IMG/VR virus record: IMGVR_UViG_3300029957_000007
Span: 32,001-96,000 of that record
Origin: a virus
Length of the DNA stretch: 64,000 bases
Direction: 5' to 3' (one strand)
Numbering within the stretch: the first letter of the stretch is position 1; the number at the start of each line of letters is the position of its first letter. Below, in pieces: positions 9,479 to 42,771 of this stretch. The position numbers and the translations under genes were made by a program. A model generated the notes under the pieces. The model worked only from the letters and a program-made list of their open reading frames with translations, was not told the origin of the DNA and ran no database searches.

Positions 9479-9771
9479 TGGACATCGACTCAGAGGCAAG
9501 GGCCTTTGCTGCCAGGAAGGATCGCCGAAAGGTATTCCTTCCTGGCAGAAGGCAAGACATCGATCTCGAAACTGTGAGAGAAACACTCATCAAGCTTCGA
9601 GAAGTAAAGGATGGGATGTGGAAAGAGAAAGTGATCACATCCGATCCGAAACATGCTGCAATGATCGTTGAGGCTATTAACGAGGTAAACCTCAAGATCG
9701 CTGACTATGAAAACCAACTCAAGGTGCTCAATGCTAGACCTCGAACAGGTGAACGACAAACTGGTCGCTAA
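9478..9771 (+). CDS. Hypothetical protein
   Basis: 97-aa coiled-coil ORF whose start overlaps the previous stop. Confidence 0.6.
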   Translation: MDIDSEARAFAARKDRRKVFLPGRRQDIDLETVRETLIKLREVKDGMWKEKVITSDPKHAAMIVEAINEVNLKIADYENQLKVLNARPRTGERQTGR

Positions 9772-19871: not shown

Positions 19872-20261
19872 ATGCTACGAAAGAAACAAGAGGATTTGAC
19901 TGAGAAAGAAACGTACTTCGACAACGTAAAACGCTGCATACAACTGATCGATGCTCGAAAGCGTTTGGGCATGCCAGTTGGTGGGACACTACAATCGCTG
20001 GAACGGCTACTCAAGATCAATGTGAATTGCGAGGATGTTCACACAGACGACTACATCTGCGCTGTGATGATCGATGGTTTCTTAGCAGAGGCTGTGAAAC
20101 CAACAGAGGATCCTGAGCTCAGCGATGAGATGCGTCCTGCGACGTACCTTAGCACGAAGGAGCACATCACGTTCTATTCTGAACGGATGCTTCCTGCCAA
20201 CAGCATTGTGATCTTCACTGATCAACGCGTTCTTTACGCTAAGTGGAAGCACCAGCGATGA
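19872..20261 (+). CDS. Hypothetical protein
   Basis: 129 aa, RBS ggag. Confidence 0.55.
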   Translation: MLRKKQEDLTEKETYFDNVKRCIQLIDARKRLGMPVGGTLQSLERLLKINVNCEDVHTDDYICAVMIDGFLAEAVKPTEDPELSDEMRPATYLSTKEHITFYSERMLPANSIVIFTDQRVLYAKWKHQR

Positions 20262-21800: not shown

Positions 21801-21966
21801 CTTGCGGTTGCAGTTGGTGCAAGAGCCAAAGGGCCCAGGACTTGAGCATCGGCCCCCTCGTTCCTTTGCTCAAGTATGACCACCCTAATGCGAATGGGAA
21901 ATCGCATCGTAGGCTGAGCGAGTTTGGAGTCATGCCTCCAATGTAGCAATCCTACACAACCGCAAG
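21801..21966 (+). ncRNA. Candidate structured non-coding RNA or cis-regulatory element (no family recognised)
   Basis: 10-bp closing stem, four internal stems (9, 6, 6 and 5 bp) and two possible pseudoknots in a 190-nt intergenic gap. Confidence 0.6.
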
Positions 21967-21987: not shown

Positions 21988-22467
21988 ATGCTGAAGAAAG
22001 TTGACACGCTACTCAAGCAGTGCAAGGGTAAGACGACTGTGCATAAGTTTGAGAATCTACTCACGAAACTCGATGGTCTATGCAGAATGGACTTCGACTT
22101 CTTGATGAGAGGCAACCTCATTCCTTACCGAGTCACATTCGCAAATGGTGTGAGTAAAGAGGAGTGGGATGCGACACCAGATAAAAGTAAGGTAGTGACG
22201 ATCGAACATCAGGATCCTGACCAACTCGGCAAGTTGTTCTTCGCAGCAGTGATGGACACACGTCGTCCTCATGATACCACACTGACATTCGTTGATTACT
22301 ACTCGAAAACGATTTCAGTGCGAGTTAAGGGCGATGACTATCACAATCCGATTTTTGTGGCAGAAGGAAGGATCCTCTGGAATGGGGCTCTCGAAGATCA
22401 TCTTCGTGAACAAGAACACGAGGCGATCAAGGAGAAAAACAAAGAGAAGTGGAGAAAGTCACTATGA
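21988..22467 (+). CDS. Hypothetical protein
   Basis: ATG after ggagag. Confidence 0.6.
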   Translation: MLKKVDTLLKQCKGKTTVHKFENLLTKLDGLCRMDFDFLMRGNLIPYRVTFANGVSKEEWDATPDKSKVVTIEHQDPDQLGKLFFAAVMDTRRPHDTTLTFVDYYSKTISVRVKGDDYHNPIFVAEGRILWNGALEDHLREQEHEAIKEKNKEKWRKSL

Positions 22468-40001: not shown

Positions 40002-40454
40002 ATGTCGAATGCTAAAGTCGTGACACGTGAGATGATCGAGAACATCCGCTTCGTTCAGAACACGTTGAACGCTCAGCTGATGATCCCTGACCTGGGCAAG
40101 AACGGCATCGTTCTGACGCCTTACGAGATCGTGGACTTCTCTCGCTTCTTCTCCAAGCGTGAGCTCGGTCAGTCATCGCACTTGGATTACTGCCTGAAGG
40201 AAGGGCATCTGAAAGTGCTGGAGACTCCTGCCAATGTTGCCGAGGCAACTGGCGAGAATCTCAAGTTCAAGGACGCTGTGCAGGAAGAGGACAAAGAGAA
40301 GCTGCGTGGTGAAGAGCTCCCGAAGGACACGCCGGTCACTGATCGTGTTGAGACCAAGTTCGATGAGGGTCTGGACAAGGTTGAGGACAAGGAAGACCAG
40401 GAAGACGAAGAGACCAAGCTCAGCAAGAAGCGTCGCAAAGCCAGCCAGGAATAG
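40002..40454 (+). CDS. Conserved-position protein downstream of the MCP (head-associated?)
   Basis: aagga RBS; acidic tail. Confidence 0.6.
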   Translation: MSNAKVVTREMIENIRFVQNTLNAQLMIPDLGKNGIVLTPYEIVDFSRFFSKRELGQSSHLDYCLKEGHLKVLETPANVAEATGENLKFKDAVQEEDKEKLRGEELPKDTPVTDRVETKFDEGLDKVEDKEDQEDEETKLSKKRRKASQE

Positions 40455-40575: not shown

Positions 40576-42771
40576 ATGAAGAGAACAGCGCTGCTCATTG
40601 GCTTGCTGATGTGCACCATCAGCGCATGGGCCAATCCATCAACACCAACGGGACTTGCCGTTGTGACAAACACAGCGACAAGTGCTAATCTGACTTGGAA
40701 TTCAGTCAGCGGCATTGGTATCAAGTACAACATCTATCAGAATGGAACATTACTCGGAAACAATGGCGGCACAAATGCTCAAGTGTCTGGCCTTGTAACT
40801 GGCGTGAGTTATGGATTCGGCGTTCAAGCTTTTGACATCAACAACCTCGCATCAGCGGTTTCGCCATATGTGACGATCACTGCTGGATCTGGTGTCACGC
40901 CAACTGGTCAAGTACAGAATGTCTATTGCGTGAATTGTTCCTCTGGGTCAGGTGGCGGAGGTGGTTCCGTCACACAGGGGACTTCACCATGGGTTACGAG
41001 CGGAACAATTACAGGATCTATTCCAACTGGTAACAATACAATAGGTGCCGTTGGTGTGACAAGTATGCCAACTATTTCAATTAATCCGGCCAATGTCTAC
41101 ATCACTGGCACGGTGAATGCTAATGTCACCTCTTCTACTGCGCAACAGATTACGATTACTGCTTCGAGTATCACGTTACCAGTTAGTGTGACGGCGGCAT
41201 TACCAGCTGGAACAAACTACATTGGTGCAATAAATATTAGCAATACATCAGCAATTAGCATTAGCGCCACCGGCGGGGCATTTGGAGTGAACAACTTCCC
41301 AACCTCACTGACAAACGGCGATTGGGTCTCAGGTGATACGCCAGAAGCTCAACTTGCATCAGTGGAAGCCTACTTGAAGATGTCGAACACGGCTGGTACT
41401 GCTGACAACGTAATGGGTGACACCACCAATGGTCTGTGGGTTAATCTGAAGAATGCAGTCGCTTTGACTGTGAATACCCATGCCGTTACGCAGTCTGGAG
41501 CATGGGCTGCATTCGTCACACCAAGCGTTGGTACGTCCAGTGGTTCTCCTGCTTTCATCTCCGTGACAGGTCAGGTTCCAGTGACTTGCTCTAATTGTAC
41601 TAGCGGAAGCAGTGGAGCTTCTTCTGGGCTGAGTCTGGGAGCGCAGACTACAACTGCCGTTGTCGGATGGTTTGGCGGCATCACGAGTTCGGTATCCGTA
41701 AATACACATGCAGTGACTCAAAGCGGAGCATGGGCTGCATTCGTCACACCAAGCGTTGGTGTTGTGGCTGCAACTCCAGTATTTGTTTCCATACCAGCGG
41801 GAACTTACCTGACAGCCAATCCGGTGGGAGGTGCATTCCTTGGTTCTGTTTCCTTCGTTGCAGGTGCGATTGGAACTTCTTCTGGCAATCCACAATATGT
41901 CAATCAAGCTGGACTCACTTACTACAACAGTGTGAGTAACAATAGTTCTGTTCAACTTGCTTCATCTGCTACATTCACTGGAGCTATCGAAGGAGCTTTT
42001 AACCAACCAGCTGCACAGGTTATGGTCTTCGGCGACCAACCCATGACCATCTATTGTGACCAGTTTAACGCCCTAAACAACGTTGTGGAAACAGATACTT
42101 TTACTTATGTGACATTCACTACTGGCATCGCAAGTCAGGGATTCAATCGTAACATTATGATTACTGGAGACGCCTTTAGGGTGCGGTGTCAGAATACGGG
42201 GGCAGGCACCACTACTACATTTAATTTAGAAACCACTTACGGTACCTTACCACCAGAACCCAACGCCATCACGAGTTTAGGTAATAAAAAGATTGCTTTG
42301 ATGGAATTAGGAGGCCTTCTCCTGAACGCTGCTGGAATTCCTATTTCAGGAACGGTCAATTCAAATCTGTACGTCGCAGGTGCTGCCAATAATGCAACTA
42401 ACGGCGCGTTCTTCAGCAACCTTGGCAACTACTCTACCGGGCGATACGTCACCACAGCCGCTGGGGCTACGAATGCAACTTCCATTAAAGCCAGCAGTGG
42501 CATGATTACTGGATTGTGGGCCAGCAACACCAATGGCAGTACACAATATATTAAACTTTATGACGTGTCATACACGCCACAAGTCGGTGTTACTGTACCG
42601 ATGCTAACCATAGGCGTCCCAGCAAATGGTGGTTTTCTCAATCCAGTTGGAGCATCTGCCTGTCTGACATTTACATCTGGGATTGCAACCGCTACTACAG
42701 CTAACAGTGGTGATACAGACGCAACGAGCATTGCTGCTTCAACATTGAAATTTATCATTAACTGGAAATAG
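40576..42771 (+). CDS. Signal-peptide FN3-domain fibre-like protein
   Basis: MKRTALLIGLLMCTISAWA; PSTPTGL...LTW...YNIYQNG...Y.F.VQAFD FN3 pattern; Gly/Ser/Thr-rich shaft; phage-type C-terminal beta domain. Confidence 0.65.
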   Translation: MKRTALLIGLLMCTISAWANPSTPTGLAVVTNTATSANLTWNSVSGIGIKYNIYQNGTLLGNNGGTNAQVSGLVTGVSYGFGVQAFDINNLASAVSPYVTITAGSGVTPTGQVQNVYCVNCSSGSGGGGGSVTQGTSPWVTSGTITGSIPTGNNTIGAVGVTSMPTISINPANVYITGTVNANVTSSTAQQITITASSITLPVSVTAALPAGTNYIGAINISNTSAISISATGGAFGVNNFPTSLTNGDWVSGDTPEAQLASVEAYLKMSNTAGTADNVMGDTTNGLWVNLKNAVALTVNTHAVTQSGAWAAFVTPSVGTSSGSPAFISVTGQVPVTCSNCTSGSSGASSGLSLGAQTTTAVVGWFGGITSSVSVNTHAVTQSGAWAAFVTPSVGVVAATPVFVSIPAGTYLTANPVGGAFLGSVSFVAGAIGTSSGNPQYVNQAGLTYYNSVSNNSSVQLASSATFTGAIEGAFNQPAAQVMVFGDQPMTIYCDQFNALNNVVETDTFTYVTFTTGIASQGFNRNIMITGDAFRVRCQNTGAGTTTTFNLETTYGTLPPEPNAITSLGNKKIALMELGGLLLNAAGIPISGTVNSNLYVAGAANNATNGAFFSNLGNYSTGRYVTTAAGATNATSIKASSGMITGLWASNTNGSTQYIKLYDVSYTPQVGVTVPMLTIGVPANGGFLNPVGASACLTFTSGIATATTANSGDTDATSIAASTLKFIINWK
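41470..41760 (+). repeat. Duplicated 21-aa segment VNTHAVTQSGAWAAFVTPSVG (41470-41532 and 41698-41760)
   Basis: 36 nt are identical between copies (41497-41532 = 41725-41760). Confidence 0.9.

Follow-up and report, generated by a model that had tools for sequence, protein, structure and literature searches.

The stretch of DNA analyzed here (herein the window; 64,000 nucleotides) comprises bases 32001 through 96000 of a 122,758-bp IMG/VR virus record that is estimated to be 76% complete. Almost all genes are carried on the + strand, and the small genes between ~18.9 and 24.2 kb form a tight run, with most neighbors overlapping or abutting. Within this run, + strand genes at 20243 through 20578, 20578 through 21057, 21032 through 21535, and 21513 through 21797 lie 5′ of a non-coding gap, and those at 21988 through 22467, 22449 through 22772, 22784 through 23152, 23133 through 23369, and 23366 through 23839 lie 3′ of it. 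The gap (21798 through 21987) is 190 nt long and is the largest in this block, in agreement with the preliminary description of a 190-nt interval in an otherwise packed region. A putative structured RNA of 166 nt (21801 through 21966, + strand; herein the element) takes up nearly all of it. Two tRNA genes, tRNA-Pro(TGG) (24250 through 24324) and tRNA-Ser(TGA) (25161 through 25247), are found on the same strand, 2.3 to 3.2 kb downstream of the element.

None of 50,697 deposited phages is closely related to this one, and the only DNA similarity of the 19- to 25-kb region to these is in tRNA-Pro. No significant Pfam or PHROG family was found for nine neighboring proteins; the only two rows, both well short of threshold, pair the product of 22784 through 23152 with Cas6_N (E = 0.09) and that of 19326 through 19799 with ApoLp-III (E = 0.037). 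The first of these is a protein of 122 aa that scores 13.5 bits against the Cas6 N-terminal domain (cut-off 27), a row that would be of interest only with a confirmed RNA partner nearby.

The upstream gene, P0002 (21513 through 21797, + strand; 94 aa), has no homolog among 5.8 billion clusters other than itself, the identical sequence being present on four contigs (JGI, Logan, and ENA). The downstream gene, P0001 (21988 through 22467, + strand; 159 aa), belongs to a family of six known sequences; its relatives P0003 through P0006, from Logan assemblies, are 54 to 71% identical, and a fifth relative, P0007 (JGI contig of 9.4 kb), shares 89% identity with P0003; the contigs encoding the five range from 3.7 to 38.6 kb. 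In the AlphaFold model of P0001 (pLDDT 77), a long helix packs against a β-sheet. Foldseek returned no convincing match for this model, only weak rows to Alba-type nucleic-acid binders; its resemblance to HK97-type capsid and encapsulin chains is middling and unconvincing (Z up to 7.5, a range that the tool calls common). As P0002 lacks homologs and P0001 has relatives, the left side of the gap appears to be unique to this lineage and the right side shared; the isolation of P0002 also suggests that the junction is evolutionarily young or variable. Searches for further examples of the locus were negative: the DNA of the element has no blastn match in the 50,697 phage records, P0001 has no tblastn match in phages, scans of viral, metagenome, and genome collections with P0001 and its family alignment returned nothing, and neither did a head-locus protein scan of viral contigs.

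On the + strand, the element is predicted to adopt a five-way multibranch fold closed by a terminal helix, P1. RNAfold gives a minimum free energy (MFE) of −62.8 kcal/mol for residues 21801 through 21966 and an ensemble diversity of 7.3 nt over 166 nt; 49 of the 50 predicted pairs are Watson-Crick and one is G-U, and every named helix (P1 through P5b, and P3a) has a mean pair probability of at least 0.92. P1 is formed by CUUGCGGUUG (21801 through 21810) and CAACCGCAAG (21957 through 21966), a perfect 10-bp Watson-Crick duplex of −15.3 kcal/mol. It begins 3 nt past the TAA stop of P0002 and ends 11 nt ahead of GGAGAG, the ribosome-binding site of P0001. Reading of the flanks suggests that P1 could be extended by pairing of AAAGA (21796 through 21800) with UCUUU (21970 through 21974) across a 3-nt bulge (21967 through 21969); the local optimum identified by RNALfold spans 21795 through 21976.

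Four arms are enclosed by P1. P2 (21814 through 21829) is a 5-bp hairpin, UUGGU/GCCAA with a GCAAGA loop (stem 21814–21818/21825–21829), and holds the only G-U pair of the element (pair probability 0.92). P3 (21840 through 21875) has a perfect 9-bp stem (21840–21848/21867–21875) and an 18-nt loop (21849 through 21866). P4 (21888 through 21907) pairs AUGCGA with UCGCAU over six perfect base pairs (pair probability 0.95), with the loop AUGGGAAA. The P5 arm (21909 through 21955) consists of a 5-bp base helix (21909–21913/21951–21955), an internal loop, and a perfect 6-bp tip helix (21924–21929/21936–21941). The MFE fold also contains a 4-bp helix (21830–21833/21883–21886). P1, P3, P4, and the two helices of P5 had been listed by eye; all five are perfect Watson-Crick helices at exactly the positions first given, and RNAfold recovers every one of them, adding the P2 hairpin and the 4-bp helix.

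The 18-nt loop of P3 is complementary to two other segments, which had been put forward as possible pseudoknots. In the first candidate, loop residues GGCCC (21851 through 21855) would pair with GGGCC (21831 through 21835; duplex −11.3 kcal/mol), in competition with the 4-bp helix of the MFE fold; in the second, CUCGUUC (21857 through 21863) would pair with GAGCGAG (21916 through 21922; −10.1 kcal/mol). Both complementarities are present, and they are reproduced together by 0.3% of shuffled 18-nt loops (P about 0.003). The multi-stem, doubly pseudoknotted arrangement is thus supported as a single-sequence prediction.

The element matches no known RNA class. At gathering thresholds, Rfam 15 families, which include riboswitches, self-cleaving ribozymes (hammerhead, twister, HDV-like, pistol, and hatchet), phage prohead RNA (pRNA), Y RNA, 6S RNA, and the large phage-associated RNAs, find only the two tRNAs in the whole window and nothing at the element; at E ≤ 10, the only row in 21600 through 22200 is a spurious lncRNA match (13 bits; cut-off 55). 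A tRNA or tmRNA was rejected, as ARAGORN found none at default thresholds, at relaxed ones, or with introns allowed, its only call at the 85% threshold being an implausible “tRNA” with a 209-nt intron. The label “unrecognized” therefore stands: there is no Rfam, tRNA, or tmRNA match and no conserved or coding-like open reading frame (ORF). Neither strand has a terminator-like site between 21798 and 21987, the AACC-GCAA-GGUU hairpin near the 3′ end having only 4 bp (−3.2 kcal/mol), and an intrinsic terminator was rejected on these grounds. A consensus scan found no sigma-70 promoter in the gap, and no processing signal was identified for the element. Two phage-associated classes were discarded on the basis of missing partners: a retron msr-msd RNA, because the 122.8-kb record (76% complete) has no RVT_1 (reverse transcriptase) match and the downstream gene is a 159-aa orphan, and a phage Y RNA, because the record has no TROVE (Ro60) match and Rfam gives none at the element.

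In the 122.8-kb record, blastn and a covariance model of the element both retrieved the element alone, with no second copy; matches of 12 to 14 nt elsewhere in the genome are at chance level and fall in coding-like sequence. Seven exact DNA patterns derived from the loops, a weak test for copies, gave either nothing or matches in viral, metagenome, and genome collections, and all matches that were read or aligned proved to be unrelated coding sequence or chance G+C-rich sequence. These results bear on a miniature inverted-repeat transposable element. The 10-bp perfect inverted repeat at the ends is of the kind that such an element carries, but the flanking sequences, AAAGA and GUUUCU, do not form a direct repeat and provide no target-site duplication, and the phage has a single copy, with chance matches only in the pattern scans.

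Four ORFs of 41 to 52 aa are open in the gap, in four frames. None is present in a collection of 15 billion proteins that does contain both flanking genes; the + strand 52-aa ORF (GTG start, 21788 through 21946) has no homolog, and a 51-aa ORF on the − strand has no match among 1.84 billion representatives. By codon usage, the gap ORFs score −0.04 to −0.17 per codon, lower than 99.3% of genuine stretches of 52 codons in this phage; the flanking genes score +0.11 and +0.14. Frameshifting or readthrough from P0002 was also rejected, there being no slippery heptamer and a zero-frame stop 16 codons on.

We compared the stability of the fold with three nulls; the resulting significance estimates are all post hoc, the region having been chosen by eye. 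The folding energy of the 166-nt + strand is better than that of all but one of 500 dinucleotide shuffles (z = −3.73). For the − strand none of 500 shuffles is as stable (z = −5.34), and for the + strand with flanks (193 nt) one of 200 is (z = −2.58). The genome itself was the second reference. In a 170-nt sliding fold scan of the first ~87,300 bases of the genome, the segment holding the element ranks 181st of 3487 on the + strand and 8th of 3487 on the − strand. RNALfold (z = −3.62 on the + strand) places 222 non-overlapping local structures of at least 100 nt ahead of it (rank 223) and ranks the − strand fold (z = −5.02) 37th among such structures. When the genome was shuffled in 1-kb blocks, 38 to 39 structures reached z ≤ −3.62 and two reached z ≤ −5. 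Given the 222 better local folds and the 38 to 39 in the shuffled genome, stability on the + strand does not by itself single the element out. The earlier view that so dense a pairing is unlikely by chance thus holds against shuffles of the element (1 in 500) and fails against the local-structure background of the genome (rank 223).

Other properties are less common. Among 297 local + strand structures of 140 to 200 nt with z ≤ −3, the element ranks near the bottom in both ensemble diversity (lowest 2.7%) and G-U content (lowest 2.4%). With all criteria combined, five regions qualify in the real genome and two in the shuffled genome; of the other four real regions, three lie within the window, inside or across long ORFs of the ORF list, and the fourth lies outside the window and thus outside the ORF comparison. 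The element is the only non-coding one among the qualifying regions compared with that list. Perfect 10-bp inverted repeats 100 to 200 nt apart number 32 in the genome and 22 in the shuffle. By our own arithmetic, such a repeat would bridge the ends of this particular gap by chance in roughly 3 of 10,000 cases and the ends of any gap in about 1%, taken over all gaps. It is the combination that stands out as moderately unusual: the ends of the gap are joined by 10 bp of helix, the ensemble is sharply defined, G-U pairs are nearly absent, and the loop has two strong complementarities. Overall, the chance tests give moderate support, short of proof.

The same scans revealed several other structures. 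The highest-ranking structures in the RNALfold list are long perfect hairpins, some of which precede T runs and resemble terminators. The strongest local fold in a non-coding gap of the window lies at 9493 through 9660 (z = −8.2 on the + strand, −7.9 on the − strand; gap about 9479 through 9706, ~228 nt), with 8018 through 8180 scoring marginally lower on the + strand; it holds a 13-bp perfect hairpin (CUGCCAGGAAGGA...) and two further arms, and is a much stronger thermodynamic outlier than 21801 through 21966. At 40454 through 40647, a pair of perfect hairpins (11 and 13 bp) precedes a T8 run, with GGGAGA and an ATG near 40576 after it. This looks like a terminator and then a new gene start; ORF 40234 through 42771 therefore probably starts at this later ATG. 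The best z-scores of the genome (−9.3 and −7.5) belong to 113279 through 113399 and 112749 through 112862 (genome coordinates, outside the window), adjacent intergenic, very long perfect hairpins of 14 to 18 bp that are probably strong bidirectional terminators. Elsewhere outside the window, dense GAT/GAC/GAG/GAA-rich 11-mers, with the same words in both places, occur at L040:7300–7900 and L040:18700–19100 (genome coordinates) and suggest two related Asp/Glu-rich repeat proteins.

Several explanations of the gap other than a folded + strand module have to be weighed. A small protein encoded in the gap, such as that of the 52-aa GTG ORF or the − strand 51-aa ORF, is very improbable: the frames are open and the 52-aa ORF contains a CxCxxC motif, but no ribosome-binding site precedes the GTG, and both the absence of homologs and the codon usage speak against translation. 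A functional RNA transcribed from the − strand, antisense to the operon, is unlikely. Its predicted fold is 8.7 kcal/mol more stable (−71.5 versus −62.8 kcal/mol), with G-U pairs (three, versus one on the + strand) gained where the + strand has A-C mismatches, and it is the − strand that scores better in the shuffle test and in the genome-wide ranking, where only two folds as good arise in the shuffled genome. Against this, its ensemble is diffuse (diversity 25 nt, versus 7.3 nt for the + strand), three of its helices have probabilities below 0.5, no − strand promoter or terminator flanks the element, and the neighboring genes all lie on the + strand. With pairs that are almost exclusively Watson-Crick, the sequence alone cannot decide the strand; it is the context, the strand of all the neighboring genes, that leads us to favor the + strand as the functional one. 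A riboswitch-like leader, as originally suggested, or one otherwise regulated, controlling translation or transcription of P0001, we regard as improbable. The element lies directly 5′ of P0001, stopping 11 nt short of the ribosome-binding site, and aptamers are usually built in this way, as a multi-helix junction closed by P1 with loop docking. The features noted at the 3′ end are all present: the AACC-GCAA-GGUU hairpin, which overlaps the 3′ strand of P1, a U-rich run, and, as read from the sequence, GGAGAG (21978 through 21983) ahead of the ATG at 21988 (21978 through 21990 in all, + strand); UUUCUUU can in addition pair with the ribosome-binding site. However, the only alternatives that use the 3′ strand of P1 or the ribosome-binding site are this hairpin (−3.2 kcal/mol) and a G-U-rich hairpin covering the ribosome-binding site (−3.3 kcal/mol), compared with −15.3 kcal/mol for P1. 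The thermodynamic prediction thus lacks the two mutually exclusive structures of comparable stability, linking P1 to a terminator or to a hidden ribosome-binding site, that would be expected of a riboswitch. The ribosome-binding site is predicted to be about as accessible as elsewhere (unpaired probability 0.31 to 0.34; median 0.37 for 107 genes of the window), no riboswitch family appears at E ≤ 10, and nothing about P0001 suggests a role in metabolism or transport. As no expression platform is visible in the predicted energies, a static fold is favored over a switch.

The reading that we prefer, at a probability of about 0.4, is a discrete, constitutively folded RNA module on the + strand of the operon transcript, which may be either a stable RNA released by processing or a fixed site of processing or stabilization. 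The module would comprise about 166 to 182 nt within a polycistronic message of small accessory genes. A helix of 10 bp, or perhaps of 15 bp interrupted by a bulge, would join its ends and span nearly the entire gap; inside P1 there would be four hairpin arms, and the 18-nt loop would dock on two other unpaired segments to give a compact pseudoknotted core, a structure that would be static rather than switching. The paired ends would most likely mark the module for excision or protection, yielding a small stable RNA that acts in trans; alternatively, the module could serve as a fixed processing and stability point between two cistrons. What the analysis establishes is the set of helices, the non-coding character of the gap, the sharply defined predicted ensemble, and the lack of a known family; transcription from the + strand, processing, and any target are inferred. 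Several observations count against this preferred reading: the prediction rests on a single sequence, its calculated stability is ordinary for this genome, and helices with almost no other pairs than Watson-Crick are equally compatible with a palindrome at the DNA level or with a young element. Its main competitor, which we consider possible but somewhat doubtful, is that the gap has no RNA function and is a mosaic junction or spacer, such as what is left of a decayed gene, an insertion bounded by terminal inverted repeats, or a promoter region that escaped recognition, its foldability being due to chance or to DNA palindromes. The unexceptional + strand z-score is consistent with this, shuffled genomes yielding ~39 equal folds and two with all the extra features, as are the strand symmetry of helices in which 49 of 50 pairs are Watson-Crick, the resemblance of the 10-bp terminal inverted repeat to the ends of a miniature transposable element, and the position of the gap at the boundary of conserved (P0001) and unique (P0002) DNA. 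It is opposed by our own arithmetic, according to which a chance structure of such quality would fall entirely within a non-coding gap and be bounded by it in only a few percent of such genomes, by the rarity of the two loop complementarities among shuffled loops, and by the lack of a target-site duplication, of a second copy in the phage, and of copies in viral, metagenome, and genome collections by the patterns tried, a weak test. A bolder interpretation, that the element is the first member of a new phage RNA class with a compact, doubly pseudoknotted fold, would make it either a small ribozyme or a trans-acting RNA that docks through its 18-nt loop, within or between molecules as in phi29 pRNA, and that comes from an accessory, possibly anti-defense, block; it seems unlikely to us.

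An unrecognized structured RNA at this locus is therefore plausible but unproven. If real, the RNA would add to the unassigned structured RNAs already on record, here from a large uncultured phage and among small orphan genes, and its compact, possibly pseudoknotted core would be a reasonable target for probing and self-cleavage assays. About 10,000 candidate structured phage RNAs have been predicted from IMG/VR, in classes that include tRNA-like, terminator, and upstream cis-regulatory RNAs (Fremin, Bhatt and Kyrpides 2023, PMC10690425). Like those candidates, the element is intergenic, folds strongly, comes from an uncultured phage contig, and has no family assignment; those, however, were identified in covarying alignments, and the element is based on a single sequence. 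Since phage candidates are already known in thousands (PMC10690425) and the present one has this single-sequence basis, its interest is modest.

Other known RNAs offer partial parallels. The element shares with the aptamers of lysine, SAM-I, and cobalamin riboswitches a four- to five-helix junction closed by P1, loop–loop or loop–junction docking, and a position just 5′ of a gene; it differs from them in having no family match, a P1 far more stable than usual, and no visible expression platform. The prohead RNA of phi29 (pRNA, RF00044) is likewise ~170 nt long and has a junction of several helices and 5′ and 3′ ends that pair with each other; in both, complementary loops could in principle allow pairing between molecules. 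In contrast to pRNA, the element has no Rfam match at E ≤ 10 and lies in an accessory block rather than at the genome end, and the large size of the phage together with a baseplate gene of the contractile-tail type indicates that the phage is not phi29-like. Small stable RNAs also occur beside tRNA genes in large phages, for example the species 1 and 2 RNAs of phage T4. Unlike these, the element is not adjacent to the tRNA genes and has no identified processing signals. Both belong to large tailed phages, are compact (~120 to 170 nt), and lie on the strand of the surrounding genes, and the element has its tRNA genes 2.3 to 3.2 kb downstream.
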